A stretch of 64,000 nt of DNA from Thermoanaerobaculaceae bacterium (lineage in GTDB: Bacteria; Acidobacteriota; Thermoanaerobaculia; Multivoradales; UBA5704): contig CAVQIV010000026.1 of assembly GCA_963712665.1 (NCBI GenBank), positions 257,045 through 321,044 of the forward strand, given 5' to 3'. The translations under genes and the position numbers were made by a program. Under the pieces are notes generated by a model. That model did no database searches, was not told the origin of the DNA, and was given only the letters and a program-made list of their open reading frames with translations. This document shows positions 1,370-59,019 of this stretch, piece after piece. Every line of letters begins with the position of its first letter. The first letter of the stretch is position 1.

Positions 1370-2017
1370 ATGATCGAGCAAGACCGCATCCGCGTGGTGA
1401 TCGTGGAAGACGACCGGATTGCCCGCGAAGGCCTCCGGATGCTGGTGGACGGCACGCCCGGCTACCGTTGCAACGCCGTCTTCGGCTCGGTCGAACAGGC
1501 GCTGGCCGCCCGGGGAGGCGAGCCGCCCGACGTGGTGCTGCTCGACATCAAGCTGCCGGGAATACCGGGCTCGCAGGGCGTCGGCTCATTGCGCGAGCGG
1601 TGGCCCAAGGCGGCGGTCCTCATGCTCACCGCCTTCACCGACGAAGACAAGGTTTTCGAGTCGCTGTGCAACGGCGCCGTCGGCTATCTCCTCAAATCCA
1701 CCCCGCCTGCGCGGTTGCTCGAAGCGGTGCGCGAAGCGCACCACGGGGGCGCACCCATGTCGCCCGAGATCGCGCGCAAAGTGGTGGAGCTCTTCCGGCG
1801 CAACACACCGCCGGTCGCCCTGGACGACGCGCTCGCGCCGCAGGAAGTCCATCTGCTCCGTCTGCTGGCCGAGGGCTGCAGCTATCAGGTCGCGGGCCAT
1901 CAGCTCGGGATCACCATCAACACGGTGCGCAACTACATCCGCAACGTCTACGAGAAGCTCCAGGTCCACACCAAGTCCGCCGCCGTGAGCAAGGCCATGC
2001 GGGCCGGCCTGCTGTGA
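1370..2017 (+). CDS. NarL/LuxR-family response regulator (REC + HTH)
   Basis: ORF 1370..2017. Receiver motifs VVIVEDD, DVVLLDIKLPG, MLTAF; C-terminal LuxR HTH (LAEGCSYQVAGHQLGITINTVRNYIRNVYEKL). Confidence 0.9.
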   Translation: MIEQDRIRVVIVEDDRIAREGLRMLVDGTPGYRCNAVFGSVEQALAARGGEPPDVVLLDIKLPGIPGSQGVGSLRERWPKAAVLMLTAFTDEDKVFESLCNGAVGYLLKSTPPARLLEAVREAHHGGAPMSPEIARKVVELFRRNTPPVALDDALAPQEVHLLRLLAEGCSYQVAGHQLGITINTVRNYIRNVYEKLQVHTKSAAVSKAMRAGLL

Positions 2018-2046: not shown

Positions 2047-2823
2047 TCAGCTTTCACTCGCCTCCAACCTCTGGATGAACTCCGGATCGAGCCCCGCCGC
2101 TTCCCGTCCCTCGCGATGAAAGGTCCGGCCCCGGGCCTTGACCGGGCGCAGGGGCCAGGTGAGGTTGGCCTGGAAGGCGTCCCAGGCGGATTGATCCTCT
2201 CCCTTGAAGACCTGGAGCCAGGTCCAACCGAAGCGGACGTGCTCGATTTCGTCGAGGTGGACGCGATCGATCACCGCCGCCGTCTTCGAGTCCCCTGCCC
2301 GGCGCGCGGCCTCGGCGTATTCCTCGGTGTGATCGAGGTTGGCGTTCTCGAAGGTGAGGGACATGGCACAGAGGAAGCGCAAGGGGGTGGTGATGGTCCC
2401 GACCTTGCCCCAGAAGTAGCCGTTCACCGCATAGTCGCCGAAGCGGGCGCCCGCGTCCTCCACCCGTGCGATGTACATGCGGGTATGGCGCTGCTCGTCC
2501 AGGAGGATGCGCACGAGACCGCGGCGGAATTCCGGCGGAGCCTCAGGAAAGGCGAGCAGGGCCCAGGCGAACAGCTCGGCAGCCTGAAGCTCATGGTTGG
2601 CCAGAGCATGCAGGATACGCCGACGCTGCGCCGGATCGTGCATGCCTTCGAGGGATGGCACCGCGATCCGCGTCCGGAACCGCAGGTTGGATGGCCGGCC
2701 CGGCTCCTCGGCCCGGAAGGGAGGGCCGGGATCGGCGTCCGTCAGCTCGCCGGCAGGAGGCGCGAGCTTGACGTCGAGATTCTCGGCAAGGAGGACGGTG
2801 CGGGCGAAGTCGCGGATCTCCAT
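2047..2823 (-). CDS. ferritin-like domain protein (DUF455-like)
   Basis: ORF 2047..2823. Di-iron-type helices HELQAAELFAWALL ... LLDEQRHTRMY ... LDEIEHVRFG. The family call is from memory of DUF455 motifs. Confidence 0.6.
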   Translation of the reverse strand: MEIRDFARTVLLAENLDVKLAPPAGELTDADPGPPFRAEEPGRPSNLRFRTRIAVPSLEGMHDPAQRRRILHALANHELQAAELFAWALLAFPEAPPEFRRGLVRILLDEQRHTRMYIARVEDAGARFGDYAVNGYFWGKVGTITTPLRFLCAMSLTFENANLDHTEEYAEAARRAGDSKTAAVIDRVHLDEIEHVRFGWTWLQVFKGEDQSAWDAFQANLTWPLRPVKARGRTFHREGREAAGLDPEFIQRLEASES

Positions 2824-2957
2824 CGTCAGGTGAACGTTACCGCACTTATCCTGACTGCACCACGCGAAACGGATGGGCCGCGACGGTGAACCTCTGGCGG
2901 CCCCAACCGTCCATGCTCTACCTCTCTCCCGTGTTCGTCCCCCTGAAGTTAGTTAGA

Positions 2958-3335
2958 GCAGAAAACTTCTGGGAAAGATCTTCTCAGCCTCTGAAAGGCC
3001 TTTTAGCCTCAGAAATACTCAATTCGACCTGAGAAAAGACCTTTTGGATCTGGAAAAGGTCTTTCAATCCAGTAATGCTCCGTTGTCTCGGGCAAAGACC
3101 TTTTGGGCAAGCAAAAGATCTTTCTCTCTCGGGGAAAGACTTTTCAAGATCAGAAAAGGTCTTTTCCCCGAGGCAGAGACTCAATCCTCGGGGAAAAGAC
3201 CTTTCGCCTGGGCGTGGAAGTCATTCCGCAGAGAATAGACCTATTGCCACAGGGGAAATGCCTTTTCCGGGTTCTCGACCGCAAATCCGGTCCCGAAAGG
3301 TCTTTTGGGCCGAGAGAAAGGTCTTTTGACCGCGG
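2958..3335. repeat. array of about 19 short palindromic units (core AAAGRYCTTT, e.g. GAAAAGACCTTTT / GAAAAGGTCTTTT / AAAGGCCTTT) spaced 18-23 bp apart, mean about 20 bp
   Basis: Hand-located cores centred near 2965, 2978, 2999, 3017, 3039, 3058, 3077, 3098, 3118, 3139, 3159, 3180, 3198, 3221, 3239, 3261, 3287, 3301 and 3321. The region is markedly AT-richer than its flanks. All six frames carry only short repetitive ORFs. Confidence 0.85.
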
Positions 3336-3615
3336 CACTCCAAGGGTGCCGTTTCTCAGCTTTCCAGGAGGAGGGCGATCCTCCGAAGGCGGGTATGGCA
3401 TCGAACCGGGGCAACAGCCTAGCCCCAGGGTGCTCCTCGGGCGCTTATACGCCACAGCGCATTGCTTTGACGAGGATTCTGAAGAGGTGTAAGCTCGCTC
3501 TAGCCTCAAGAATTCGAGGAGATTAGCTCGATGTCCGCCGCCAAGTCACGATGCTTTTGGACGAAGGGAAGTGACGATATGGCAGTCGAAAGGGTTTGGT
3601 GCTTAGGCGGCGAAG

Positions 3616-4191
3616 GTGGCGAATAGGTTAGGCGCGATAAGGAGCTGTCTGCCAGTGGATAATCAAGCCGGTCCATCGGACGAGCTTCGGCTGTCAAGGG
3701 AGGAGCGTATAGCCGCCATCGCTGTTCCTTTGACGGCTGCTATCGCTCTTCTTGTAGTAGCCGCAGTGCGCATGCCGCGCTCCGACCTGGGAGATTGGGC
3801 TAGCGCTCTTGGCGATATCGGCACATTTATTGTCTCTCTGCTTGGCGCAGCCGCAGCAGTCTGGTGGTGGAAGCATCGTGGCTCTGCCTCCCCCCGCTTG
3901 AAGGTGACTCAGTCTGTCAACATACTACCTTCCACAGGAAGCTACATTCCGCTGTACATTACTGCACACTTGGAAAATGTCGGTGAAGTGCCTGTCGTTC
4001 TCACGAAGTGGTGCTTGTGGGCTACCGACATGCTCCCTCTTCCGCCTACTATCGATGGCCTTCTGAATGCCGATCCGGATCGGTCATGCCGAGACTATCG
4101 GTTGCCGTGGAAGGCAGCTGCAGGCGCAGAATTTGAGATGCCTGAACAGGAAGCACCACGTGTGCGGCCTGGTGAAACCCAGAGGATATAG
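3616..4191 (+). CDS. hypothetical membrane protein (two predicted TM helices plus a C-terminal soluble domain); may continue to about 4326 through frame breaks
   Basis: ORF 3616..4191 with hydrophobic stretches IAAIAVPLTAAIALLVVAAV and IGTFIVSLLGAAAAVWWW. Protein-like reading continues downstream in other frames (REIYSFFPHDSLAKGGGRGWTSITIIELEKEV, stop near 4326). Low-GC segment. Confidence 0.4.
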   Translation: MANRLGAIRSCLPVDNQAGPSDELRLSREERIAAIAVPLTAAIALLVVAAVRMPRSDLGDWASALGDIGTFIVSLLGAAAAVWWWKHRGSASPRLKVTQSVNILPSTGSYIPLYITAHLENVGEVPVVLTKWCLWATDMLPLPPTIDGLLNADPDRSCRDYRLPWKAAAGAEFEMPEQEAPRVRPGETQRI

Positions 4192-4331
4192 GCGGTACTT
4201 TGCGAGTGCCGGCTGACGCGCGGTTGGTCCAGGGAGATCTACTCCTTTTTCCCACATGACAGCCTTGCCAAGGGTGGTGGCCGTGGCTGGACAAGCATCA
4301 CTATTATAGAACTAGAGAAGGAGGTTTAAGC

Positions 4332-4427
4332 ATGGAGCGAGAACGTGAAGGAGACAGAGATCGTCGTCCATTCGATCAACCCGATCGCTATCCAGATGCA
4401 GATCTTCCCTACGACCTCCCGGGCTGA
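4332..4427 (+). CDS. small ORF (31 aa, MEREREGDRDRRPFDQPDRYPDADLPYDLPG) with a strong Shine-Dalgarno; could extend to 4521 with a +1 shift
   Basis: AAGGAGG lies 7 nt upstream of ATG 4332. Not in the ORF track because it is under 60 aa. No recognisable family. Confidence 0.25.
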   Translation: MEREREGDRDRRPFDQPDRYPDADLPYDLPG

Positions 4428-4728
4428 TCCGGATGTCAAAAAAAGAGACCTTCCTACGATCCTCCGCATCGCGATGAGCCGCCAGAGCGCGGTCGGAGAT
4501 GAATGGGTGATCATCGCCTAACCCGTGGGCCTCAACCGGAGCGCCGCCTCCTGGCCGCTGAGCAGCATCTCAGTCGGTGCCGGCCAGTGAGATACCACGG
4601 AGAATCAGGGCACATTGGAGCTTAAGGCAGGGCGAGCATCCGACGGCTCAACCGCGAGTGGGCCGCAGTGCTTCTCCGGAAAGAGAAAACACAATTCACA
4701 CTAACGGCCACAACTTCGGGAGGGTCCC

Positions 4729-4945
4729 ATGGAACTGAAGACTCCGCAGGCGCAAGACGTCAGGAAACAGCTCGTCTACACTCCGGGTGCGTTGTCCTCC
4801 TTCCGGGACCTGGTCCAGTTCCTCGAGGCCAGCGAGTACATGCTGGCCCAGCTCATGATGCAGAACAAGATCTGGGTCGGAAATCCACCTAAGAATCCCG
4901 GCGGCTCTGGTGAGATCGAGTTCGGTCTGATCCCTTACTGGGTCC
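4729..4945 (+). CDS. probable N-terminal part of the downstream metallophosphoesterase, separated from it by a frame break near 4930-4950
   Basis: ORF 4729..5064 reads protein-like up to ...EIEFGLIPYW. The frame of ORF 5091..6167 is already open and protein-like from about 4914 (IVIADYLDSHEVTKFLWNLLETLLPAQIDSTKYAALIAAVKGQGL) but has no start codon there. Confidence 0.4.
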
Positions 4946-5090
4946 ACAACCCGCCATCGTCATCGCTGATTACCTCGACAGCCATGAGGTCACCAAGTTC
5001 CTTTGGAACCTGCTCGAGACTCTGCTGCCGGCGCAGATCGACTCCACGAAATATGCCGCCCTGATCGCGGCCGTTAAGGGGCAGGGGCTG

Positions 5091-6167
5091 GTGACCGCGG
5101 ACGGCTCGATCTATGGCACGGCTACTTACGAGCAACTCGATCCGGGCTGGATCTGGGGAGCGATCAACTATCTCATTGTCAAGTACGCCGGTGGCCTGGC
5201 GCCTTTCAGCACGACCAGCGTCAGCCCCATTACGCTCACCGGCAGCTCTCCCGATCAGGTGGTCCTCGCCTTGGTCGGCGATTGGGGCACGGGAGTGTAC
5301 CCTGGGGGCGTGGCCACGGACGTCCTCCAGCAGATCACTGATCTGAGCCCGGACTACATCATCCACCTGGGAGACGTCTACTATTCCGGCACGGCCGGCG
5401 ATTTCCTTCCGCTGCACGAGGAGAAGAACAACTTCGTGAATCTCTGGCCGGTGTCGACGCCGTCCTTCACGCTCAACTCGAACCATGAGATGTACGCCGG
5501 CGCCAAGGGTTACTTCGGGGTCGCGCTCGCCAACAGCCGCTTCTCCAAGCAGAAGAAAACCAGCTATTTCGCCCTGCAATACGGCGGCTGGACGCTGCTG
5601 GGCCTGGACAGCGCATACTTTTCGACCTCACCGTTGTACATGCTCGGCTCCATCGGCGGCGCTATGGGAACCCAGGCGAAGTGGATCCAGAAGCTGGGGC
5701 TCTCTGCCCAGAACGTGATCGTGCTCAGCCATCACACCGGATTGACCTTCGACGGGTCCTCGGAGCTGAGCCTGTGGGGAGAGGTCAATGCCGCTCTCGG
5801 GGGCGATCCAGCGGCGTGGTACTGGGGGCATATCCACAACGGGATCGTCTACAAAACTCCAACGGTGACTGGCCGGAAGACCCTGGCCCGCTGCCTCGGG
5901 CATGGCGCCCTCCCCTTCGGCCAGGCTTGGGGTCTCGTCAACGCCCCCTACGTCTCGTACTACGCCAACACCTTGAATCCCAACGGTGGCGGCGTGCGGG
6001 TCTACAACGGCTTCGCCCTCTTGACCATCACCAAGCAGGGAACGGTGACGGAGGCGTTCTATCAGCAGGACACCGCGCAGCCCGTCTACACGAACAGCTA
6101 CAGCCTGCCCTCAAATCGCTCGGCCAAGCCGAGGAGGAGCCCCAGGGCCAGGACACGGAGGGGCTAG
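5091..6167 (+). CDS. calcineurin-like metallophosphoesterase
   Basis: ORF 5091..6167. Motifs GDWGTG, HLGDVYYSG, NSNHEMY, VLSHH, WGHIHNG. The last roughly 14 codons read into a degenerate copy of the 7973-8166 repeat. Confidence 0.8.
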   Translation: MTADGSIYGTATYEQLDPGWIWGAINYLIVKYAGGLAPFSTTSVSPITLTGSSPDQVVLALVGDWGTGVYPGGVATDVLQQITDLSPDYIIHLGDVYYSGTAGDFLPLHEEKNNFVNLWPVSTPSFTLNSNHEMYAGAKGYFGVALANSRFSKQKKTSYFALQYGGWTLLGLDSAYFSTSPLYMLGSIGGAMGTQAKWIQKLGLSAQNVIVLSHHTGLTFDGSSELSLWGEVNAALGGDPAAWYWGHIHNGIVYKTPTVTGRKTLARCLGHGALPFGQAWGLVNAPYVSYYANTLNPNGGGVRVYNGFALLTITKQGTVTEAFYQQDTAQPVYTNSYSLPSNRSAKPRRSPRARTRRG

Positions 6168-6301
6168 CCGGGATGGGGGGAGATGGACGTCTGGGGAACG
6201 TTGTTGCAGAGAGGCAGCAAATCTGGGGTAGAATCGGCGAAATTTCAGAGGAGGCCGTCATGCCCATTGGAAGCTTGTTGCTGCCCGGCGTTGCATCGGC
6301 T
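6128..6301. repeat. copy 1 of a duplicated divergent-promoter module (about 175-195 bp, roughly 85% identical by eye to 7973-8166)
   Basis: Shared strings include GAGGAGCCCCAGGGCCAGGACACGGAGG, GCAGAGAGGCAG, GGGTAGAATCGGCGAAA, AGGAGGCCGTCATGCCC and CTGCCCGGCGT. This copy carries a decayed version (ATG->ACG plus a stop) of the N-terminus of the minus-strand gene seen at 8050. Confidence 0.8.
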
Positions 6302-6817
6302 GTCGCGGTGTTCATCGTGAGTGCCCTCGTCCACATGGTTCTGAGGTATCACCGGGCCGACTTCAAGCGGCTCCCGGACGAGGATTCGGTCGCCGCGGCC
6401 GTGCGCAAGGCCGCCCCGTCTCCCGGCGTCTACTTCATCCCCTACTGCGCCGAGATGTCCCAGATGAAGGATCCCGCCTTTCGCAAGAAGTTCGAGGAGG
6501 GTCCGGTCGTAAGCCTCGTCGTCCGGCGCAACGGTCCGCCGGCCCTCGGCAAGGGCCTGGCGCAGTGGTTCCTGTTCTGCCTCCTGGTGAGCTTCGTCGT
6601 CGCCTATGTGGCGCGCCATACGCTCACCTTCGGAGCTCCTGGCCAGGCGGTGATGCGCCTCACCGGGACCGTCGCCTTCGCTGCCTACGCCTTCGGGTAC
6701 CTTCAGAATTCCATCTGGGAGGGAATCCCCTGGTCCAACGCGCTGCGCGGTCTCATCGACGCCGTGCTGTACGCCCTGACGACCGGGCTCGTGTTCCGCT
6801 GGCTCTGGCCGGCGTGA
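6260..6817 (+). CDS. conserved-looking hypothetical membrane protein (about 185 aa, 4 TM)
   Basis: ATG 6260 is in frame within ORF 5681..6817 and preceded by AGGAGG. Hydrophobic helices at the N-terminus, middle (WFLFCLLVSFVVAYV) and C-terminus. Confidence 0.6.
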   Translation: MPIGSLLLPGVASAVAVFIVSALVHMVLRYHRADFKRLPDEDSVAAAVRKAAPSPGVYFIPYCAEMSQMKDPAFRKKFEEGPVVSLVVRRNGPPALGKGLAQWFLFCLLVSFVVAYVARHTLTFGAPGQAVMRLTGTVAFAAYAFGYLQNSIWEGIPWSNALRGLIDAVLYALTTGLVFRWLWPA

Positions 6818-6848
6818 GGCGCGGCGGGCGGCGGGAATCCGCCAGCCG

Positions 6849-6971
6849 CTACAGTTCGTCGCCGGGCTCGGGAGGAGTATCAGGTACCTTGGCAAGCACG
6901 GCCAGGAACTTCTCCCGGCTCCCGCGTCGGGCTCTTTCCTCGAGGTAATCCACCGTCAGGAGGGCCGCCAT
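6849..6971 (-). CDS. small ORF (40 aa, MAALLTVDYLEERARRGSREKFLAVLAKVPDTPPEPGDEL), possible antitoxin-type fragment
   Basis: Its ATG lies 1 nt after the stop of the 70-aa gene upstream. Its C-terminal ...FLxxLxKVPDxxPExxDEL resembles tails of small TA-associated proteins (from memory). Not in the ORF track because it is under 60 aa. Confidence 0.3.
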   Translation of the reverse strand: MAALLTVDYLEERARRGSREKFLAVLAKVPDTPPEPGDEL

Positions 6972-6972
6972 C

Positions 6973-7185
6973 TCAGCCTCTCTCGGTTCGCCGCTGTTTG
7001 ATCTCGGAGATGAGATCTTCCAAAGTCATTCCGGCATAGATCTCCCTCCGATCCTCCGTATAATTTCCCGTGCCCGAAGTAAACTGGTTGATAAATCGAA
7101 CGGCGTTCGCGACTCCGAGCTCGCGGTACAGGAGGCGGATGGCTTCTTGGTTGATTTCAGCGAGAGGCTTCAATGGGAGTGTCAT
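6973..7185 (-). CDS. 70-aa protein translationally coupled downstream of a PIN toxin (putative cognate antitoxin/partner)
   Basis: ORF 6973..7185. ATGA overlap with the PIN gene stop. Low-GC cassette. Confidence 0.5.
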   Translation of the reverse strand: MTLPLKPLAEINQEAIRLLYRELGVANAVRFINQFTSGTGNYTEDRREIYAGMTLEDLISEIKQRRTERG

Positions 7186-7622
7186 AGTCCTAGCTCCACG
7201 ATTAGCTCCAAAGGAGATACCACCTTAGTTCCCTCAATCATCATGCTCTTGGCCTTGCGAAGGAGCTTGTCATCACAGGTGCAGAAGAAATCGGCTCCTG
7301 CTTCGATGGCTGATGCGAGATGAAGGGCATCCAAGGGTGATATTCCAAGATCTCGCAAATTGCCTGCCCGTTCGAGGACGGCTTCGGTTGCATCGATATA
7401 GCTCGTGGCCTTTGACAGCGCCTCGTAAGCGTGAGTGCTCCGTAGGGGATCTTGTATCCGTTCGATCTCAAACTGCAAGACCTCTGACGCAACCAACGTA
7501 ATCTGACCCTCGCTGCACTCTGTGAGGACTGCCAGGACCGCCTCCGCTTCGAGGTGGATCCGGGCATGCGACTTGATGTCCCAGGGACGCTCAAGGCTGC
7601 AGGTGTCAAGGTAGACCCTCAT
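7182..7622 (-). CDS. PIN-domain ribonuclease (VapC-like toxin)
   Basis: ORF 7182..7622. Acidic PIN residues in MRVYLDTC, SEVLQFEIE, DALHLASA and CTCDD. Confidence 0.85.
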   Translation of the reverse strand: MRVYLDTCSLERPWDIKSHARIHLEAEAVLAVLTECSEGQITLVASEVLQFEIERIQDPLRSTHAYEALSKATSYIDATEAVLERAGNLRDLGISPLDALHLASAIEAGADFFCTCDDKLLRKAKSMMIEGTKVVSPLELIVELGL

Positions 7623-8050
7623 GTCAGCGTGCCCCAGGCAACAGAAATCCTACCACTCCGCTTCGACAGCGAGCAAGTTCTCACCCCTGCCAGCGAGGTG
7701 ATCCCGTCGTCAGGAGGCCGGATCAGCCGCAGCCCTGCGGCGGCCACCAGGTTGAGCAGCACGAAGGCGAGGGCGGCGTTGAAGACGATCAGAGCCAGGG
7801 CAGTGTAGACAGCCCGGAAGCGCTGGAAGAGGCTCGAGAGGGTGGCTCTCTCGCCCGCCGGCGCCCACGGCCCGAGGAAGCTCGGGGCCAGGACCACGGT
7901 CCCCACGATCACCATCAGCCACTGGCGCTCGCCGAACCCTGGCGCGCCGATCCCCAACGCGTCCGCTCCCAGGCCGAGGAGGAGGAGCCCCAGGGCCAGG
8001 ACACGGAGGGTCCAGAGGAGGGGCTTGCCGGGATTGGAGGGGATGGACAT
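7619..8050 (-). CDS. hypothetical membrane protein, probably 3'-truncated by insertion of the PIN cassette
   Basis: ORF 7619..8050. N-terminal TM-rich part (LRVLALGLLLLGL, WLMVIVGTVVLAP, ALALIVFNAALAFVLLNLVAA). The last roughly 30 aa fall in the low-GC cassette and end in an ATGA overlap with the PIN start. Confidence 0.45.
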   Translation of the reverse strand: MSIPSNPGKPLLWTLRVLALGLLLLGLGADALGIGAPGFGERQWLMVIVGTVVLAPSFLGPWAPAGERATLSSLFQRFRAVYTALALIVFNAALAFVLLNLVAAAGLRLIRPPDDGITSLAGVRTCSLSKRSGRISVAWGTLT

Positions 8051-8166
8051 AGGGGAAACGTTATCGCAGAGAGGCAGAAATTTTTAGGGTAGAATCGGCG
8101 AAACTTTGTAGGACAGGAGGCCGTCATGCCCCTTGGAAGCCTGTCGCTGCCCGGCGTCGTTTCGGC
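7973..8166. repeat. copy 2 of the duplicated divergent-promoter module (see 6128-6301)
   Basis: Contains the intact start of gene 7619..8050. It also holds only the first roughly 14 codons (MPLGSLSLPGVVSA) of a paralogue of the 6260 membrane gene. Confidence 0.8.
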
Positions 8167-8192
8167 TGGGTACTTTGGATGGGGAGGTACTC

Positions 8193-8411
8193 TTGACTCG
8201 CATCCTTGAGGCTGTCTACGAAGATGGTGTGCTGAGGCCGCTGGAAGATCCAGGGCTGAAGGAGCACCAGCACGTCCTGCTCGAGATCCGGACCGAGCCA
8301 GAGGAGCATGCCTCATCAGCACTCGAGGCATGGCATCGGGTTTATGAGGGGCTGCCTGAAGACGATATCGCTGAGATCGAGGCCATCGCCCTGGATCGGA
8401 GCCATTTCTGA
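8193..8411 (+). CDS. DUF104/AF2212-like antitoxin family protein
   Basis: TTG 8193 is in frame in ORF 8133..8411 with GGAGG 5 nt upstream. N-terminus ILEAVYEDGVLRPLEDPGLKEHQHVLLEI matches the xxEAVYENGVLKPLE signature (from memory). Confidence 0.55.
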   Translation: MTRILEAVYEDGVLRPLEDPGLKEHQHVLLEIRTEPEEHASSALEAWHRVYEGLPEDDIAEIEAIALDRSHF

Positions 8412-8523
8412 TAACCTGATTGCCGCCACGGCTCTCGTGCATGGCCTGCAGCTCGTGACTGAAAATCCCTCCCATTTCAGCCGCATCCCCGATCTCGTCT
8501 TCGAGGGTTGGCGCTCCTCCTGA
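8404..8523 (+). pseudogene. C-terminal remnant of a PIN (VapC) toxin gene
   Basis: ORF 8308..8523 ends ...DNLIAATALVHGLQLVTENPSHFSRIPDLVFEGW, a typical VapC C-terminus. The N-terminal two thirds of a PIN domain are absent. Confidence 0.6.
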
Positions 8524-8550
8524 TCTTTGGGGCAAAATCGCCGCCGGCAC

Positions 8551-9519
8551 CTAGGCCCTCTCCATATAGCCGTTGCCGACGACTTTCAGCAAGACGCGGC
8601 CCACGGTGGGATCGGTACGCTCGTGGATCGGCTTGACCACGCATCCTTCCCGGACGTGGTCGGCGCCGGGGACGAGGCTGGGGCCTTCCGCCAACTCCAG
8701 GATGCGGTCGAGCTCGAATGGGACGGCCTCGGCGATCGTAGGCACCCAGGGGAGGCCGAAGGGGATCGATGCTTCACGAGCCTCCTGGGGGTCCTTCCAT
8801 TCGCTGCCGGCCAGGATATCGAAAGCGGCAAACCGGACCTGGCCCTTCGTCGTGCCGTACTTCAGGTCCTGGACCTGGCCGTAGACCTCGCCGTAGACGG
8901 TGACGCCCGGGTTGGCCGCCAGGAAGTCACGCAGCCCCTGGGTCTCGCGCAGCGCCCGCCACCAGAGGTTGTCGTCGGACTCCTTTTTCCACTCCGTGCG
9001 GGAGCCGCAGAAGAAGCCGCCCTCTTCCAGGTAGGTGAAGCGACCGTTCGCGCCGTGAACTTTCTCACTGACGAACACGGGTTCCCCTGGAATGAAAACG
9101 GTTGCATATCGACGCAAGCTATCAACATCGAACGACGGTCGATACCCGGGAGGCGGCTTGATCGATTCTCCTCCCGTGCTGAACGGCAGGGGTGGATCGT
9201 AGTGCGTCACCCCCAGCAACGGGGCCACGTCGTCGCCGATCGCCGATCCTTCGGGAGCTGGCACCAGCAATCCCATGCTGATGATCCCGCGGAGCCGGCG
9301 GACCTTGATCCTGCGGTGTCCGTCGAGGAAGGCGAACTCGGGCGTGTCGGGGACCACGGAATCCGGCGGAATGTAGGCGCCGATCTCGCGACCGGTCCAG
9401 TCCGCGGTGCGGACGCAGACGGTGTAGCCATCGAAGACGCGGACGACGGACAGCGAATCCGCGTTGGGATGGGGCTCCAGGTGAACGGGGACGACTTCGA
9501 CTCGGTGTGTGCTGTTCAT
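8551..9519 (-). CDS. ATP-dependent RNA ligase, DraRnl (DRB0094)/Rnl5-like: N-terminal tRNA-binding-type OB domain plus Rnl2-like nucleotidyltransferase domain
   Basis: ORF 8551..9540; ATG at 9519 has the better RBS spacing. HPNADSLSVVRV resembles the PheT/EMAP-type OB motif. SEKVHGANG matches ligase motif I (T4 Rnl2 EKIHGTN). Confidence 0.75.
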   Translation of the reverse strand: MNSTHRVEVVPVHLEPHPNADSLSVVRVFDGYTVCVRTADWTGREIGAYIPPDSVVPDTPEFAFLDGHRRIKVRRLRGIISMGLLVPAPEGSAIGDDVAPLLGVTHYDPPLPFSTGGESIKPPPGYRPSFDVDSLRRYATVFIPGEPVFVSEKVHGANGRFTYLEEGGFFCGSRTEWKKESDDNLWWRALRETQGLRDFLAANPGVTVYGEVYGQVQDLKYGTTKGQVRFAAFDILAGSEWKDPQEAREASIPFGLPWVPTIAEAVPFELDRILELAEGPSLVPGADHVREGCVVKPIHERTDPTVGRVLLKVVGNGYMERA

Positions 9520-9595
9520 GAATGGCTCCAATCCAGGCAATCCTCCCCCCGCCTGGGTTTTCGAAGTATACTACCTTGGATTCCTCGGAGTATCC

Positions 9596-9856
9596 ATGAG
9601 CCAGGTAGAAATGATTGAACGACAGATCGAGCAGCTCTCGCAGGAAGAGTTGGCCAGATTCCGAGAGTGGTTCGCGAGGTATGACGCGGAGGCTTGGGAC
9701 CAGCAGTTCGAACAAGACGTCCAGGCCGGTAAGCTCGACGCTCTCGCTGAACGTGCACTTCGGTCGGTTGGCTCTAGGCCGTTTTCCCCCTGCTCTTCCC
9801 CCGCCGCTTGCCAGGCTTCTCCTCATCGATCTCCTGCCAGAAATCCTCGTGGCTGA
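9596..9856 (+). CDS. small addiction-module-type protein; C-terminus probably replaced or overlapped by the convergent Phd gene
   Basis: ATG 9596 within ORF 9509..9856. MSQVEMIERQIEQLSQEELARFREWFARYDAEAWDQQFEQDVQAGKLDALAERALR resembles small TA-associated proteins. The last roughly 28 aa overlap 9774-10076 on the other strand and look non-native. Confidence 0.4.
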   Translation: MSQVEMIERQIEQLSQEELARFREWFARYDAEAWDQQFEQDVQAGKLDALAERALRSVGSRPFSPCSSPAACQASPHRSPARNPRG

Positions 9857-10076
9857 TTCCCTCTCCTTCGCGGATCTGCTGGCGCGAGGTCTCCAGGATA
9901 GCCCGCAAGCGAACCGAGTGGGCCAGGACCAGGCGTTCGAGCTCCTCGTCGTCCCGCACGGCCAGCAAGGCGGCGACCGCCTTGCCGTTGCGCGTGACGA
10001 CCACCAGCCCCTGTTCGCTCTCCTTCAGATAGGCGCTGAACTGGGCCTTGACTTCTGCGACCGAGGCGATCTTCAA
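9774..10076 (-). CDS. Phd/YefM-family antitoxin
   Basis: TTG 10076 is in frame in ORF 9774..10214 and overlaps the toxin stop (TTTGA). KIASVAEVKAQFSAYLKESEQGLVVVTRNGKAVAALLAV is a typical Phd/YefM N-terminus. Confidence 0.8.
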   Translation of the reverse strand: MKIASVAEVKAQFSAYLKESEQGLVVVTRNGKAVAALLAVRDDEELERLVLAHSVRLRAILETSRQQIREGEGISHEDFWQEIDEEKPGKRRGKSRGKTA

Positions 10077-10239
10077 AGCTCTACCTCCTCTCCGCCGATG
10101 ACCAGGCGATCCCGCTCCTTGACGCCGATCGCCAGGATGTACACCTTGTGGTTCTCCCGGTCGATCTCGTAGAAAGCCCGGAACCGATTGTCGGGACCGA
10201 ATCGCAGCTCCCATTGCGCCTCGAAGACGGCAGGTTGCT

Positions 10240-10337
10240 GCAGTGGCTTGCGGTTCCTGGTCTCAGCATCTGGCTCGAACAGCAACTGCTCCTGGAGGGT
10301 CTCGCGAATCAACGAGTAATGCTGCCGCTCGATGGCC
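10240..10337. repeat. direct repeat, copy 1 (98 bp; 97/98 identical to 10501-10598)
   Basis: GCAGTGGCTTGCGGTTCCTGGTCTCAGCATCTGGCTCGAACAGCAACTGCTCCTGGAGGGTCTCGCGAATCAACGAGTAATGCTGC(C/T)GCTCGATGGCC occurs twice at an offset of 261 bp. Confidence 0.95.
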
Positions 10338-10500
10338 GAAGGTGTGTTGATTTTTTTTTGTGTTGTTTAGGTGTTTTGTTTTTTGTTGTGTTGTTAGGTT
10401 GTATTTTTGTGGTTTTTTTGGTTGTTTTTGTAGTTAGTTTGGTATTGTTTGTTGGGATTGTTTTGTAGCTTTTATTGTGTTTTGTAGATGGTAGGTTGTT
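10338..10500. other. 163-nt G/T-rich tract with a single C (10469): hypermutated copy of toxin-gene sequence 10083-10239 plus about 14 nt of gene sequence 5' of the repeat
   Basis: Hand alignment of 10396-10500 to 10131-10239 is colinear with one 1-nt deletion. Every difference is plus-strand C->T or A->T, and all G and T are retained. Confidence 0.9.
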
Positions 10501-10598
10501 GCAGTGGCTTGCGGTTCCTGGTCTCAGCATCTGGCTCGAACAGCAACTGCTCCTGGAGGGTCTCGCGAATCAACGAGTAATGCTGCTGCTCGATGGCC
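10501..10598. repeat. direct repeat, copy 2 (see 10240-10337)
   Basis: See copy 1. Confidence 0.95.
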
Positions 10599-10761
10599 CG
10601 AAAGGTGCTGCTTGACTTCGGGCGCGTAGACCAGGGAGTAGGGTTGCCGCCTCACCATGGTGACCAGAATTGTGACTATCGAAGCTTTGCTTGTCAACCG
10701 CCCGACTGTGGAGGGCAAAATCGCGAGGGGGCCGCGTCGCGGCCCCCTCAATCCTCAGAAC

Positions 10762-13497
10762 CTAATACCGCACGATCGCCGACAGCACCAACGCCCGAGG
10801 GGGCGAGAGCTGGGTGGGCTGGCCGAAGGCCGGGTTGTTGGAAGGCTTCAGCAGCGGGTTGGGACCCGGGTTTGCAGGATCGAGCGGTGAGTTCAAGAGG
10901 TAGCGGTCGTCCACTTGTAGCGCCACCTGCTGGTTGAAGAGGTTGGTGATGCGCGCTTCGAGCTCCACTCCGGTGCGGCCGAAGCGCAGCTCGTAGGAGG
11001 TGAGCAGGTCGACGTTCAGCCAGTCTTCCATGCGCCGCGAGCCCGCAGGCTCCAGATACCGGAAGTAGCTGCTGGTTACGTTGGCCGACGGTTGCGCCCG
11101 GGCCTCCCAGGCGCCGCCGCTCTGGTAGCGGACGTAGGTGCCGACGCGCAGCCGGTTCATGGGCTCGATGGTGGCGAAGATCTTGGCGAGATGGGTGCGG
11201 TCGCCGCGCAGCAGGCCGTTCCTGTTGTCGGTGATCAGCACGCCCGGACCGTCCTGGAGGATGGAGGAGTTGTAGAAGAGAGAGTCGGCGTAGTCGATGT
11301 CCCAATTCCCCTTCAGGCGGCTCCAGGTGTAGCTGGCGTTCATCCAGAGGTGCATGAAGCGGTCGTTCGCGGGCCGGCGGTTGAGCTCCAGGGTGGCGGC
11401 CGTGTAGCGCCGGTAGGCGCCCGGGAGCTGGCCGACGTGGAAGGGACCGTTGCCGAGGCCGTCGGCGCTGATGTCCTCGAAGATGTTCTTGACGTTGCGG
11501 TACATCCCCCAGACCTCCGCCGACCAGATGTTGCCCAGGGGTCGGGCGTAGCCGACGAGGAATTCGTCGGTGAACATCGGATCGATCCCCTTGTCGATCG
11601 TCTTGGTCTGGGTATTGGCGGCCGGCACTTCGGAGATGAGGTTGCCGGCGGCGTCGAAGGTGGCCCGGGTGGTGAAGATGCGGGTCGGCGAGCCGGCGCG
11701 GGTCAAGGACTTGTTATCGGTGTTGAAGTAGCGGCCGGCGCTGGCGTACACCTTGTCGCCCCGCTGCGGATCGAGCACGTGGGAGATGCCGAGCCGCGGC
11801 TGGATCTCCTGACCCCAGTCGAAGGTGAGGATCTTCTTCTTCACCTTGGTGCCCGGCGTAGACCCCAGGGCCTCGCCGTAGTAGTCGTCCTTGTTGACCA
11901 GGAGACCGGCGGTGAGGGTGGTGCGCTCGCCCAGGGCCATCTGGTCCTGGAGGAAGGCGCCGTAGGTCTTGGCGCGGCCGGTGTGCGGCGGCTGGATGGA
12001 GTTGTAGGTGGCCGTGAACCGCTGAGTGGTGGCGCTCCAGGTGATGGCCCCCCAGCCGTTGCCCACCCGCCGCAGGACCTCCTCGTTCTGGTCGTAGTTG
12101 ATGCCGGCCCGGACGTCGTGCCTCGTCTCACCCAGGCTGACGAAGCGCTGCAGGCTGAGCCGCGCCTCGTCGCGCTTGAAGTCCTGGAAGTTGTTGAGGC
12201 TCGCGCCGCCCACGGTCTGGCCGGGAGCCGTGGCGCCACCGATGATGCGGTCCGGCGTGGTCGAGAACTGTCCCACCAGGTCCGGGCGGGCGGCGTTGAA
12301 GGCCGGCTTATAGCCGAGGTCGGTGATGGGGATGCCCGAGTTCTCCTCTTTGTTGTGGTTGAGCTTGAGCTCGACCAGGCTGTCCGCCGACAGGTTCCAG
12401 GTCCAGGCGACGGTGCCCAGCAGGTAGTCGGTCGAATCGTCGGTCGCCACGCTCGGGTGAGTGCTGACGCCGATACCCGAGTTCTTCGTCGTGGTGTCGC
12501 GCGAGCGCACGGCCGCGGCGATGAAGTGGGTCGAGGTCGGGTTGGCCGTCAGCTTGCCGAAGTACTCGTCGGTCTCCTCCTTGCGGTCCGGCACCGTGCC
12601 GAGGTTGTTGGTGCGGTCGAGGAGGGTCTCGCTGGGCTGGCCCGCGGAAGCGTAGAACCAGAAGCGGTCGCGCAGGATGGGCCCGCCGAGCGAGCCGGCC
12701 AGCAGGCTGCGTTCCAGGGTGTTCTGGAAGCTCGGGATCTTGCTGTCGGACACGAAGCTCTTCGATTGGTTTTCGCCCCGGAGCTGGCCGTGGAAGTCGT
12801 TGGTTCCCGAGCGGGTGATGGCGTTGACCACCATGCCGGCCGAGCGGCCGTATTCGGCGGAGATGCCGCCGCGCTTGATGCTCACCTCGGCGATGTCGAG
12901 CTCCGTGACGTTGGGCAGGATGTCCCCGTAGTGGGGGTTGGTGACGTTGATGCCGTCGATGAGATAGGTGTTGTCCATGCGCGCCGCGCCGGCGTTGGGC
13001 GCCAGGCGGCCGTTCTCGGAGACGCCGGGCGCGAGCTGGAAGAGCCCTTTGTAGGTGCGCGGCACGGGCAGGTCCTCGACCTTATCGCTGCTGTAGTTGA
13101 CCTGGATGTCGCTCGACTTGACGTCGATGATCGGCAGGGCTGCGGTGACGGTGATCTCCTCGGCGACGGACGGCTTGATCGCCAGCTCGACCTGGGTGTC
13201 GCGGTCGAGGGCGACGACGGCCGGCTGCTTGACGCTGCCCATGCCGGACAGCTCGGCCGTCACCTCGTACTCGCCGGGCGGCAGGCGCAGGATGCTGAAC
13301 GCGCCTTTGTCGTCCGTCACGGCCGTGCGGCCGGCGGGCAGGAGCGGACCCCTCGCCGTCACCGTGACGCCGGGTAGCGGCGCGCCGGCGGCGTCGTGGA
13401 CCGTGCCGGAGATCGAGCCGGTGACCTGCGCGAACGCGGCCCCGGCCGGGAAGATCAGGACGAGCAGACAGAGATAGAAGATCAACCTTCTGGACAT
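10762..13497 (-). CDS. TonB-dependent receptor-like outer-membrane protein with N-terminal carboxypeptidase-regulatory-like domain
   Basis: ORF 10762..13497 (911 aa). Signal peptide; CarboxypepD_reg motif SGTVHDAAGAPLPGVTVTA...DDKGAFSILRLPPGEYEV; plug and barrel; C-terminal aromatic residue (…AIVRY). Confidence 0.9.
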   Translation of the reverse strand: MSRRLIFYLCLLVLIFPAGAAFAQVTGSISGTVHDAAGAPLPGVTVTARGPLLPAGRTAVTDDKGAFSILRLPPGEYEVTAELSGMGSVKQPAVVALDRDTQVELAIKPSVAEEITVTAALPIIDVKSSDIQVNYSSDKVEDLPVPRTYKGLFQLAPGVSENGRLAPNAGAARMDNTYLIDGINVTNPHYGDILPNVTELDIAEVSIKRGGISAEYGRSAGMVVNAITRSGTNDFHGQLRGENQSKSFVSDSKIPSFQNTLERSLLAGSLGGPILRDRFWFYASAGQPSETLLDRTNNLGTVPDRKEETDEYFGKLTANPTSTHFIAAAVRSRDTTTKNSGIGVSTHPSVATDDSTDYLLGTVAWTWNLSADSLVELKLNHNKEENSGIPITDLGYKPAFNAARPDLVGQFSTTPDRIIGGATAPGQTVGGASLNNFQDFKRDEARLSLQRFVSLGETRHDVRAGINYDQNEEVLRRVGNGWGAITWSATTQRFTATYNSIQPPHTGRAKTYGAFLQDQMALGERTTLTAGLLVNKDDYYGEALGSTPGTKVKKKILTFDWGQEIQPRLGISHVLDPQRGDKVYASAGRYFNTDNKSLTRAGSPTRIFTTRATFDAAGNLISEVPAANTQTKTIDKGIDPMFTDEFLVGYARPLGNIWSAEVWGMYRNVKNIFEDISADGLGNGPFHVGQLPGAYRRYTAATLELNRRPANDRFMHLWMNASYTWSRLKGNWDIDYADSLFYNSSILQDGPGVLITDNRNGLLRGDRTHLAKIFATIEPMNRLRVGTYVRYQSGGAWEARAQPSANVTSSYFRYLEPAGSRRMEDWLNVDLLTSYELRFGRTGVELEARITNLFNQQVALQVDDRYLLNSPLDPANPGPNPLLKPSNNPAFGQPTQLSPPRALVLSAIVRY

Positions 13498-13605
13498 CGA
13501 GCACCTCCTCCGGTGGCGTCACCCCGACGAAAGGGTGACGATGGCATGTATTCCAAGGATGTTGATCGTAGCATGGCGGGGATCTCTCCTGTAGACTCAT
13601 TCTTA

Positions 13606-14870
13606 ATGATGAATAGATACGCTCGGCTCTCCTGCCTCCTGGCCCTTGGCCTGCTCTCCGCGACCGCTGCCCTGGCCCAGCCCGGTGGTCTTCTCCCCGG
13701 TCCGCTGCCGCTGTTCCCGGCGGACAACTGGTGGAACGTGGACGTCAGCTCCGCGCCGCGTCGATCCCGGGAGCGCGGGCTACATCAACTTCATTGGGGG
13801 CAACGTCGGGCTCCACCCGGACTTCGGGGGCGACGCGGGCGACGTTTCCGGACATCTACGGCATGGTCTACGTCTCGGTACCGGGGACTCAAGCCCTGGT
13901 GCCCGTCACCTTCGTGGAGTTCGGGGGGGAGAGCGATGCTGGGGCTCCCGGCCGGCCGGCGGGCTATCCCATCCCGCCCGAGGCCAAGACCCAGGCCAGG
14001 TGGATCGAGGGCGGCCAGCCCGGCACCGGCTCGGGCGGCGACCGCCACATGCTGATCGTGGATCGCGACAACCGTATCCTCTACGAGCTCTATCACACCC
14101 ACTGGAGCTCGACCCACGGACGCTGGGAGGCGGGGTCCGGGGCGGTCTTCCCGCTGACTTCGAATCTCCGCCGGCCCGAGGGGTGGACGAGCGCGGACGC
14201 GGCGGGGCTCGCCATCCTCCCCGGCCTGGTGCGCTGGGACGAGGTGTTCGGTGCGGATTCCATCCGGCACGCCTTCCGCTTCACGGTGGAGGAGTCGAAC
14301 GGCTACGTCTTCCCCGCCTCTCACGACGCCGGCGGCACGCCCGGGGCCCTGCCCATGGGCGCCCGGCTGCGGCTCAAGGCGGGAAAGGACATCTCCGGCT
14401 ACCCGCCCGAGGTGCGGAAGATCTTCCAGGCGATGAAGACCTACGGGCTGATCGTGGCCGACAACGGCTCCAACATGTACATCACCGGCACCTACGACAC
14501 CCGCTGGGACAACGACGTGCTCAATCCCGCCTTCGCCAGTCTGCGGGCGAGCGACTTCGAGGTGGTGAAGCTCGGCTGGCAGCCCGCGGAGAGCCCGGCC
14601 GACTGTCTGCCGGGCGATACGCGGCTCTGCCTCTCCAGCGGCCGGTTCCAGGTGGAGGCCCAGTGGTGGACGGGAGCCGGCAACGGTCCGGGCCACGCCG
14701 TGGGTCTCACCTCCGACACGGGCTACTTCTGGTTCTTCGACGCCAGCAACGTGGAAGTGGTGGTGAAGGTGCTCGACGCCTGCACCTTCAACCAGCGCTT
14801 CTGGGTCTTTGCCGGCGGCCTCACCAACGTGCGGGTACGCCTCACCGTGACCGACACGACACCGGGGTAG
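13606..14870 (+). CDS. secreted conserved hypothetical protein; reading frame broken twice (near 13750 and 13840)
   Basis: Signal peptide MMNRYARLSCLLALGLLSATAALA in ORF 13396..14055. Continues as VDPGSAGYINFIGGNVGLHPDFGGDAGD in ORF 13646.., then as the long protein-like body in ORF 13731..14870. Confidence 0.6.
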
Positions 14871-14974
14871 TGAAGACCTACGAGAACCCCCAGGGGCGGG
14901 CCTTCCAGCCGGTGCAGGACACGAACGCCTTCGCCACCTGCCGGTAGAGGCCGCCGCCGGGCCCTCACCCCTGT

Positions 14975-54722: not shown

Positions 54723-55838
54723 TCAGGCCGCCTTCTCTTCTTCCCGGACCGCCTCGGGATACTGCTCGAACAGGCGCATCCACTTGCTGGTCTTCTTGTA
54801 GTGGTCGATGCGGCGCTTGCCCACCGTCGGGTACCAGGCGAAGTCGTGGTAGAAGTACGAGCCGAATACGAAGAAGTAGACGAGCGGCGTGCGGAACAGC
54901 AGCTTCTGGATCCCTTTGAGCGGCCCGAACCACACCAGGTCGCCGAAGCGGGAGACGGCGTTGTCCCCTACCGAGAAGTGGAAGTTCCACTTCGAGACGT
55001 CCTCGCCCACCACCTCGATGTCCCGCGGATCGCCCACGCCCAGGCCGGCGTCATGGGCCAGCCGGATGTAGGGGATCGACATGGGATCGAAGCCCATCAC
55101 CTTGGCCGCCACGGCGTCGATGGCCACCTGGTCGCCCGAGGCCATCATGAAGTCCTTCTCGACCGGGATCATCGTCCGCGGCCCCGGGCCGTTGCCGCAG
55201 GTCGTGCCGTCCATCACCGCGAAGAGGCCGGAGTGGATCTCCTTCTGGATGGTCAGGAGGTCCACCAGCGTCTCGTGGATGTAGGAGTGGGTGTAGTGCC
55301 GGCGGGTGTTGAGCAGGCCGCCGAAGGCGTTTTTCATGGCGCCCGTGGTGGTGGTGTAGATGTGGCACTTCACCGTCGGCAGGTGGACGATGTTCTTGCC
55401 GAGGAAGAACTCGGGGATGGTGATTCCCTCGGGGTAGATCTTCGGCAGCACCAGCATCTTCCCCTTGGGCTGGTAGGTGATCCACTTGAGGTCGTCCGCG
55501 AAGCAGTTGTAGCGCACGGGCACGCCGTACTTGTCCAGCACCGGCAGGTAGCGGTTGAGCCGCTCGCCCTTCTTGGGATCGGTGACGACGGTGTTGTTCT
55601 GCACGCAGACCTGGTCCGTGTACCCGTCGGCGCGCAGCTTCTGGATGGTCCCCTCGAGCTGCCAGGGGGTGGTATTGGCCCCCGGGAACGGGAAGTGCCA
55701 GGAGATGTTGTCCTTGAGGATCGTGGTGGCGCCCGGCGCGAGATAGCGCTCAACCTCCGCCAGCTCCATGGTGCGCCCCACGTCCGCGAGGACGTTCTCG
55801 GGGTTGGTCTTCAAGACGGCGACACGCGCTTTGGCCAT
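54723..55838 (-). CDS. DUF362 domain-containing protein
   Basis: ATG 55838 in ORF 54723..55913. VAVLKTNPENV...ILKDNISW...DGTTCGNGPGP. C-terminal hydrophobic tail. Confidence 0.85.
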   Translation of the reverse strand: MAKARVAVLKTNPENVLADVGRTMELAEVERYLAPGATTILKDNISWHFPFPGANTTPWQLEGTIQKLRADGYTDQVCVQNNTVVTDPKKGERLNRYLPVLDKYGVPVRYNCFADDLKWITYQPKGKMLVLPKIYPEGITIPEFFLGKNIVHLPTVKCHIYTTTTGAMKNAFGGLLNTRRHYTHSYIHETLVDLLTIQKEIHSGLFAVMDGTTCGNGPGPRTMIPVEKDFMMASGDQVAIDAVAAKVMGFDPMSIPYIRLAHDAGLGVGDPRDIEVVGEDVSKWNFHFSVGDNAVSRFGDLVWFGPLKGIQKLLFRTPLVYFFVFGSYFYHDFAWYPTVGKRRIDHYKKTSKWMRLFEQYPEAVREEEKAA

Positions 55839-55939
55839 GAACAGGGCTCCGGATCGATGGATGATTGCCGCGCCGCGGCGACGCGGGACTGACATTATAG
55901 CCCCCTCATTCAAGTCTCGTGCCCTACCGGGGAGGCTCC

Positions 55940-56268: not shown

Positions 56269-56271
56269 GTC

Positions 56272-59010: not shown

Positions 59011-59019
59011 GGGGATCGA

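Follow-up and report, generated by a model that had tools for sequence, protein, structure and literature searches.

A phased array of short palindromes at the edge of strain-specific DNA in a Thermoanaerobaculaceae genome

Anatomy of the palindrome array

Within the 64,000-nucleotide stretch of a soil Thermoanaerobaculaceae genome that we analyzed (Acidobacteriota; contig CAVQIV010000026.1, forward-strand positions 257,045 to 321,044; hereafter the window), a 790 bp gap between two divergent genes (2824-3615) holds an intergenic array of short palindromes built on the core AAAGRYCTTT. A DUF455 gene borders the gap on the left, and the first gene of a block of strain-specific DNA borders it on the right. 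The array is a real, statistically robust, non-coding feature; its parts, to which no strand is assigned, are as follows.

2958-3335: the entire array, 18 phase slots or 19 if the weak palindrome is included, period 20.14 bp, 49% G+C
2959-2971: weak palindrome CAGAAAACTTCTG, a possible nineteenth unit
2974-3003: site pair in slots 0-1, AAAGATCTTC and AAAGGCCTTT
3035-3064: site pair in slots 3-4, AAAGACCTTT and AAAGGTCTTT
3094-3164: four consecutive sites in slots 6-9, AAAGACCTTT, AAAGATCTTT, AAAGACTTTT and AAAGGTCTTT
3155-3204: perfect 19 bp inverted repeat, AAAGGTCTTTTCCCCGAGG and CCTCGGGGAAAAGACCTTT, linking slots 9 and 11 across the decayed slot 10
3235-3265: weaker pair in slots 13-14, ATAGACCTAT and AAATGCCTTT
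3296-3326: site pair in slots 16-17, AAAGGTCTTT twice

An earlier reading of the letters alone (the sequence-only reading) had described a local, non-coding array of about 19 palindromic AAAGRYCTTT units recurring every 20 bp or so, as opposed to a dispersed element of the repetitive extragenic palindrome (REP) type, and measurement bears this description out. The exact core, AAAGNNCTTT (equal to AAAGRYCTTT), occurs nine times in the window, every time inside 2994-3326. Allowing one mismatch at most raises the count to 17 sites, a number reached in 0 of 100 shuffles; 12 of them lie in the array (2974-3326) and five outside it, where 4.6 ± 1.9 are expected by chance per window. Fitted by least squares, the 12 sites have a period of 20.14 bp and residuals below 1 bp over 18 slots from 2974 to 3326, a phase drift of less than 1 bp across 343 bp. 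Both periodicity checks that had been proposed were run, with different outcomes: autocorrelation peaks significantly at lags 20 (z = 4.0), 40 (z = 5.9) and 61 (z = 5.8) relative to 620 other windows of the same length, exceeding 1000 of 1000 shuffles, and Tandem Repeats Finder does not report the array at 2958-3335, because the core alone is conserved and not the whole unit.

This selective conservation is seen in an alignment of the 18 slots, where core columns carry 1.0-1.6 bits per position and spacer columns 0.06-0.46 bits, which is no more than random sequence would give (expected 0.13, 99th percentile 0.50). As a consensus the sites follow a 12 bp dyad, AAAAG-RY-CTTTT, with conservation limited to a core of 10-12 bp and random spacers of 8-10 bp. 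The centre of the core is invariably purine-pyrimidine (AT, GC, AC or GT), so that sites are present in both orientations. Slots 2, 5, 10, 12 and 15 are decayed and slot 13 carries two mismatches, leaving the intact-site pattern (0,1) _ (3,4) _ (6,7,8,9) _ (11) _ (13,14) _ (16,17), in which good sites stand as adjacent pairs with one decayed slot between them and a super-period of ~60 bp. An inverted-repeat search found that the 11 nt arms of slots 3 and 4 are perfectly complementary across a gap of 8 nt. Higher-order repeats of 40-60 bp, together with inversions, indicate probable growth by duplication and inversion, the duplicated module perhaps being a pair of sites of that length, after which core and phase alone would have been retained. 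The G+C content of 49% compares with 65-75% over most of the window. The array is base-for-base identical in L001, a separately assembled metagenome contig of the same strain, and is therefore not an assembly artefact.

Several familiar kinds of repeat were considered and set aside. Open reading frames (ORFs) overlapping the array have flat G+C across the three codon positions (GC1/2/3), with no rise at the third, and no Pfam match; with a period that is not a multiple of 3, a coding repeat was rejected. CRISPR (clustered regularly interspaced short palindromic repeats) loci have repeats of 23-50 bp, unique spacers of similar length and cas genes, and the 20 bp unit here, with its 10-12 bp core and 8-10 bp spacers, does not have this geometry. 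The array resembles REP, BIME and REPIN sequences in being made of short palindromes of alternating orientation clustered in intergenic DNA. It differs in that REP sequences are dispersed in tens to hundreds of copies with GTAG or CGTC tags, whereas here the motif stays within a single locus in 64 kb, and its palindromes are not long enough to form hairpins alone; with outside sites at chance level, REP-like dispersal was rejected.

The repetition could also reflect a transcribed array acting as RNA, either as a long structured leader of DUF455 or as a sponge that titrates an RNA-binding protein, in the way that CsrB titrates CsrA by repeated motifs. About 380 nt with ~18 repeated motifs would be comparable to CsrB-type sponges, neighbouring units can pair in stems of 11-19 bp, and the predicted fold is far more stable than shuffled sequence. 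However, the gain in stability is alike on both strands (z = -5.0 and -5.7), as for any array of palindromes, which gives no strand preference and no sign of an RNA role, and strand-specific structure was not found. Wobble and mismatch patterns likewise favour neither strand, and the symmetric core in both orientations points to recognition of double-stranded DNA. No tRNA, tmRNA or known RNA family was found in the array: Rfam gave 0 matches at the gathering score, returning generic hairpin models alone with E-values of 0.004-0.8, and neither a consensus sigma-70 promoter nor an intrinsic terminator is predicted around it (2700-3800). We regard an RNA role as improbable.

A purely structural role, in which curvature from phased A/T tracts or extrusion of cruciforms would affect a promoter or supercoiling with no dedicated protein, draws on the A4/T4 tracts placed every two helical turns in a GC-rich genome, on the perfect 19 bp inverted repeat, and on a predicted ratio of end-to-end to contour length of 0.835, against a window mean of 0.919 ± 0.054. 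With the wedge parameters used, this value is ~1.6 standard deviations from the mean and several ordinary regions of the window are more curved, so that strong intrinsic curvature was not found. The invariant G and C around the R-Y centre are not needed for curvature, and a period of 20.14 bp leaves helical phase over 18 units. This explanation appears very improbable.

The junction of the strain-specific DNA

The genes and signals around the array are listed here.

2047-2823, minus strand: DUF455 (ferritin-like) gene, start codon 135-151 bp from the array
2845-2898, minus strand: stretch still shared with the closest relative, L039 (92% nucleotide identity), comprising the 3' end of its upstream gene and the short gap before DUF455
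2899-10768, no strand assigned: strain-specific DNA of ~7.9 kb between DUF455 and a TonB-dependent-receptor-like outer-membrane gene, with the array as its leftmost feature
2946-2955, minus strand: candidate weak -10 elements TAACTA and TAACTT, picked by eye, just downstream of the array in the DUF455 direction
3467-3495, plus strand: candidate promoter TTGACG-17-TAAGCT directed towards the gene at 3616, picked by eye with a score under the scan threshold
3616-4191, plus strand: first gene of the inserted DNA, 191 aa, from a rare family of membrane-protein-like ORFs

Synteny was compared across nine related DUF455 contigs. In the four with 82-83% identical DUF455 genes, DUF455 lies 27-80 bp behind the TonB-dependent-receptor-like gene, and BLASTN places that pair at 10767-14946 (receptor-like) and 2058-2844 (DUF455) of the window. 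Since the pair is adjacent in these four relatives and split in the window, the ~7.9 kb between its members is specific to this strain. In the closest relatives (DUF455 protein identity 86-94%), DUF455 follows a different gene by 4-22 bp. The copy of this upstream gene that we examined, in L166, encodes 287 aa, is 86% identical to the 290 aa gene called at 394-1266 in L039, and looks like an anti-sigma factor; apart from the remnant of its 3' end it is absent from the window. Nucleotide similarity to L039, the nearest relative, ends at 2898, which leaves 60-75 bp between the left junction of the inserted DNA and the start of the array. The array had been taken to mark the left border of an accessory patch, and a breakpoint at ~2899 agrees with this.

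Given how closely DUF455 follows another gene in the closest relatives, the window copy has lost its earlier promoter and needs a new one. None of the nine contigs carries the array, and linkage of the array to the gene on its left was rejected; linkage to the gene on its right was rejected as well, as homologues of the 3616-4191 ORF occur in other contigs with no array upstream. The array is tied to neither neighbour.

Among close relatives the DNA upstream of DUF455 (window 2824 onward; L039-L045 and L166-L169) comes in three contexts: an outer-membrane receptor gene, a gene that resembles an anti-sigma factor in the copy examined, and the insertion with the array. The site looks like a hotspot of rearrangement. 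In L167, coding sequence rather than an array lies directly upstream of DUF455.

The ORF at 3616-4191 belongs to a family with 13 proteins in 5.8 billion. Its homologues are 217-284 aa long, with two exceptions, the copy from the same strain (178 aa) and another of 181 aa, and because nearly all of them are longer, the ORF may be truncated or frameshifted at its C-terminus. In L170 another homologue, preceded by a small ORF, follows a 680 bp gap that contains a purine-rich stretch (4400-4590) with CCGGGAAG-like motifs every 20-42 bp, which may be another array with a different core.

Besides this ORF, genes for a metallophosphoesterase, a PIN toxin and an RNA ligase lie in the inserted DNA, together with Phd/ParE-type modules; no obvious regulator was found among the genes of 2899-10768. 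Such a setting raises the possibility that the array is a cis-acting site from an element, mobile or once autonomous, that arrived with the 7.9 kb: a partition centromere, an origin iteron field, or a multi-site end for a transposase or recombinase, comparable to sopC with its tandem palindrome-bearing units, to parC, to lambda-type origin iterons, or to the multi-site ends of Tn7 or Mu. The location just inside the junction would suit this, as would the lower G+C of the inserted DNA and its toxin-antitoxin genes, which are typical of mobile DNA. On the other hand, the ORFs of 2899-10768 that a Pfam scan covered include no Rep, ParA, ParB, ParM, ParR, integrase or transposase, the far end near 10768 bears neither a counterpart of the array nor an inverted copy of it, and comparison of the array with 72,556 plasmid and 50,697 phage records gave no similarity. 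The genome search pattern described in the next section yields only four matches in viral contigs, and 18 sites are far above the number on known transposon ends. A cis site of any of these kinds is improbable, and the earlier suggestion of binding by Rep or ParB-like proteins finds no support in the gene content of the inserted DNA.

Comparison with individual systems refines this. The F plasmid sopC consists of 12 units of 43 bp, each with a 16 bp palindrome, and the parC sites of R1 and pSK41 and the heptad arrays of the pSM19035 omega protein are further examples of partition centromere or operator arrays. Like the window array, they have at least 10 phased short sites, some in mixed orientation, on which a higher-order nucleoprotein complex is built, and some double as promoter operators; the window array differs in having no nearby partition genes, in its chromosomal context, and in its period and motif. 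Origin iterons, recognized by an adjacent rep gene, an AT-rich unwinding region and DnaA boxes, are repeats of 17-22 bp at about two helical turns, close to the 20.14 bp period seen here. The window sites, however, are dyad-symmetric and of mixed orientation rather than direct, and no Rep family is encoded nearby.

A second array at the far end of the window offers a parallel that had already been drawn by the sequence-only reading.

55939-56268, no strand assigned: second array, 16 TCGCGA-core units at exactly 21 bp spacing, filling a divergent intergenic region
55835-59028, no strand assigned: extra 3.2 kb relative to a related species, with the second array at its DUF362-proximal edge

The flanks of its units change orientation along the array (GCCC/GGGC versus AAAY/RTTT). 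In the related species a DegT aminotransferase gene and DUF362 are 48 bp apart and map to 60113-59029 and 55834-53795 of the window, a comparison with one species that does not settle the direction of change. A perfect TATAAT lies at 55899-55894 on the minus strand, the strand of DUF362, ~45 bp from the first unit; a TATACT is also found 14 bp before the ATG at 56273. The parallel therefore extends further than architecture: both arrays (2/2) stand at synteny breakpoints, at one edge of strain-specific DNA that parts the two genes of a conserved pair, and directly upstream of the displaced minus-strand gene. This association with junctions is the most interesting and most testable lead from the analysis and can be checked on existing genomes.

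Arrays with the same core in other genomes

We searched genomes for three core sites at spacings of 19-22 bp and then 19-43 bp, a pattern that itself imposes the 19-22 bp spacing, so that its matches allow no inference on a preferred period. Among 185,579 species genomes it returned 37 loci, where fewer than one is expected by chance (an estimate). Most are intergenic Bacteroidota arrays of 8-15 units at 20-22 bp, whose neighbours are unrelated (aspartate kinase, leucyl-tRNA synthetase (LeuRS), serine hydroxymethyltransferase (SHMT) and cargo proteins of the type IX secretion system (T9SS)). All-against-all BLASTP and Pfam comparisons found no conserved partner gene by the same-core arrays at the 37 loci. 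Some matches are of another nature: L016 and L035 are paired terminator hairpins, and L005 looks like a coding heptad repeat.

In one Bacteroidota metagenome-assembled genome (MAG), CALCIK01, an element of 420-450 bp with the same core is present in eight or more copies that have diverged to 65-79% identity (loci L002, L003, L004, L006, L018, L020, L033 and L038). Each is laid out as a leader of ~40 bp (TTTTGTTGACTTTTTGTCGAA), ~10 units of AAAGACCTTTTT with a period of ~20.7 bp, a terminator-like hairpin, which an RNA role could accommodate, and a tail of ~180 bp that is conserved and has CTAAAGGTAGGCAAA at its end. The same arrangement has been published for BrickBuilt, a MITE (miniature inverted-repeat transposable element) found in Porphyromonas gingivalis, with a tandem 23 nt repeat between leader and tail (Klein et al., 2015; PMC4596501). 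BrickBuilt is present in 19 copies of 1 to 23 repeat units, is always intergenic, lies beside unrelated housekeeping and secreted-protein genes, and has bidirectional promoter activity (PMC4596501). Two other Bacteroidota MAGs contain 13-unit arrays (L014, 7500-7759; L030, 2539-2819) in which the core is conserved and the spacers have diverged, 112-118 bp upstream of an orthologous 225 aa gene.

These elements bring in the main competing explanation, that the window array is a minisatellite, selfish or neutral, and perhaps the inner array of a BrickBuilt-like MITE, which spread or expanded by slippage and recombination and landed at junctions or made them, any effect on a promoter being incidental. 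The multi-copy leader-array-tail elements of CALCIK01 and their match to the published BrickBuilt description suggest as much, as do the unrelated housekeeping genes that flank same-core arrays, the position of both window arrays at breakpoints, the 40-60 bp higher-order repeats and inversions that point to growth by duplication, and the fact, detailed below, that arbitrary palindromic cores form arrays equally often. The window array further resembles BrickBuilt in being an intergenic tandem array of ~20 bp units near gene ends. There are also differences. A leader, a tail and terminal inverted repeats are all absent from the window array, and no inverted repeat joins its flanks; there is no second copy within 64 kb; and its units are of mixed orientation in a 68% G+C acidobacterial host. 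BrickBuilt repeats a whole unit head to tail, whereas here the 12 bp palindromic core alone is kept, and passive decay of a tandem duplication does not predict that core and phase would be retained while spacers vary freely. The array is also identical in the two assemblies of this strain, and the high-GC arrays described next share no flanks. We consider a minisatellite origin unlikely on this evidence. If it were correct, BrickBuilt-type elements would extend beyond Bacteroidota and would mark recombination hotspots.

The same core was also found in two Thermoanaerobaculia genomes (L027 and L037) and in several high-GC metagenome contigs (L115, L095, L128 and L056). The arrays of L027, L037 and L115 have the full 12 bp core, GC-rich spacers of 8-9 bp and unrelated flanks, and no common flank, leader or tail was found among the window array, L027, L037, L115, L095, L128 and L069. 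The L037 array is flanked by two outward sigma-70-like promoters (10/12 and 9/12 consensus matches) and the L027 array is abutted by one (10/12), where 0.1 is expected.

In both genomes a strong sigma-70-like promoter is followed ~80-110 nt on by a terminator-like hairpin (L037, 3256-3383; L027, 7890-7739, minus strand), with a second CTTTGACA box downstream. These promoter-hairpin units beside the arrays could be small RNA genes, and a hairpin ~100 nt after a promoter is one of the observations that would suit an RNA role for the arrays. In L115 the array (9 units) lies ~140 bp upstream of a lanthipeptide-precursor-like ORF (1581-1913, minus strand), which reads MKKIDVVRAWKDPFYRSTLTPEEVSQLPVHPAG... 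and by eye resembles the leader of a class II (mersacidin-type) lanthipeptide precursor.

Many of the metagenome matches belong to another sort of repeat. L053, L073, L099, L118, L162 and others are long satellites with an 11 bp period and up to 66 sites per kb-scale contig, in which the same AAAG..CTTT decamer is contained; they come mostly from marine samples, have 40-50% G+C, and are possibly eukaryotic.

Proposed operator sites and promoter control

The explanation that we favour, tentatively and from sequence comparison, is that the array is a promoter-proximal row of phased operator sites for a putative dimeric DNA-binding protein. What the sequences show is the array's anatomy, its selectively conserved core, its place at the junction and the reappearance of the motif by promoters in relatives; protein binding, cooperativity and promoter control are inferred. 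A conserved dyad core with free spacers, a two-turn phase, sites in both orientations and folding with no strand bias argue for a dimeric protein acting on double-stranded DNA, and symmetric sites that occur in both orientations are what a homodimer would be expected to use. A dyad core conserved above its spacers at a fixed helical phase is characteristic of operator arrays, and the contrast between core and spacer is unlike that of minisatellites, which repeat whole units.

On this model the array would be a cis-acting DNA element of ~12 intact and six decayed dyad sites (AAAAG-RY-CTTTT), spaced in multiples of ~20 bp, or two helical turns, so that the sites would lie on roughly one face of the helix. 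Dimers of one sequence-specific protein would bind cooperatively, filling adjacent sites in pairs, and build a nucleoprotein platform that ends beside a promoter. That promoter would now drive DUF455, which was cut from its ancestral upstream genes by the arrival of ~7.9 kb of foreign DNA, and the platform may also act on the diverging gene of the inserted DNA at 3616. The array ends ~20 bp from the weak -10-like hexamers on the DUF455 strand, which would centre slot 0 near -36 to -40; this proximity, together with the relatives' arrays that abut predicted promoters, fits a promoter-proximal operator or activator array. The second array, which reaches to ~45 bp from a perfect TATAAT upstream of DUF362 at the same type of junction, provides a supporting parallel.

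Rows of dimer sites at this spacing are familiar from transcription activators. At the fha and ptx promoters the NarL/FixJ-family protein BvgA binds as dimers to inverted-repeat sites ~22 bp apart, centre to centre. Arrays of this type share with the window array the use of one helical face, the two-turn spacing, an extent from far upstream to the -35 region, and a weak or absent -35 element, and they differ in size, known cases having 3-6 dimers compared with 12-18 sites here. To our knowledge the motif matches no operator that can be named.

Several findings weigh against this model. Nothing encoded nearby is a candidate for the binding protein: the inserted DNA carries only toxin-antitoxin, PIN, RNA-ligase, phosphoesterase and uncharacterized genes, and the adjacent LuxR-type response regulator is ancestral to the locus, being present in L167 as well. 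A consensus scan of 2700-3800 found no sigma-70-like promoter, and the -10 candidates were chosen by eye. The genes beside same-core arrays have no common function, which speaks against a classical regulon, and the cores of the two window arrays differ, which would require a separate binding protein for each. Finally, when three other palindromes matched in composition served as control cores, the same three-site search returned 4, 3 and 1 viral loci, compared with 4 for AAAGRYCTTT, and an equal frequency of arrays with arbitrary cores also fits an origin that does not depend on sequence, such as hairpin-assisted slippage. Because the control cores form arrays about as often, the idea that this core is special across phyla is weakened, and its cross-phylum recurrence is largely a product of the search design. 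Phased short-palindrome arrays are rather a broad class with many cores, in keeping with the earlier suggestion, made from the two window arrays, of a class with different specificities.

Of the explanations considered, those invoking a centromere, iterons or a transposon end, an RNA, or curvature rank lower than the operator-array and minisatellite explanations, and from its sequence the array seems best filed as a variant of phased binding-site arrays or of prokaryotic minisatellites. In a broader and distinctly doubtful extension of the operator model, long phased palindrome arrays would be a portable regulatory cassette in Thermoanaerobaculia and possibly many bacteria, carried to the edge of inserted DNA or built there, coated by a dedicated lineage-specific protein, and supplying or insulating the promoter of a host gene that has been cut from its operon. 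Different arrays, such as AAAAGRYCTTTT here and TCGCGA at 55939-56268, would then be served by different proteins, a pattern that both window arrays fit.

If such arrays are promoter platforms coated by protein, they would illustrate how the expression of genes orphaned by horizontal insertions is restored or insulated in bacteria, and would point to a new family of DNA-binding proteins in Acidobacteriota, a phylum that has been little studied. The signature of a conserved core with free spacers also offers a route to arrays that tandem-repeat finders miss.

A further observation concerns the opposite end of the strain-specific DNA, where a ~260 bp tandem duplication lies in the region of a ParE/RelE-like toxin (10340-10505 versus 10075-10240, and 10231-10336 versus 10492-10597). 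Over the first ~165 bp of the second copy, nearly every C and many of the A residues of the first copy are replaced by T, leaving a 153 bp tract of 1 C, 13 A, 44 G and 95 T; the remainder of the copy is 98% identical. The duplication lies outside the coverage of L001 and may be either a long-read assembly artefact or a duplicate that was hypermutated on one strand.

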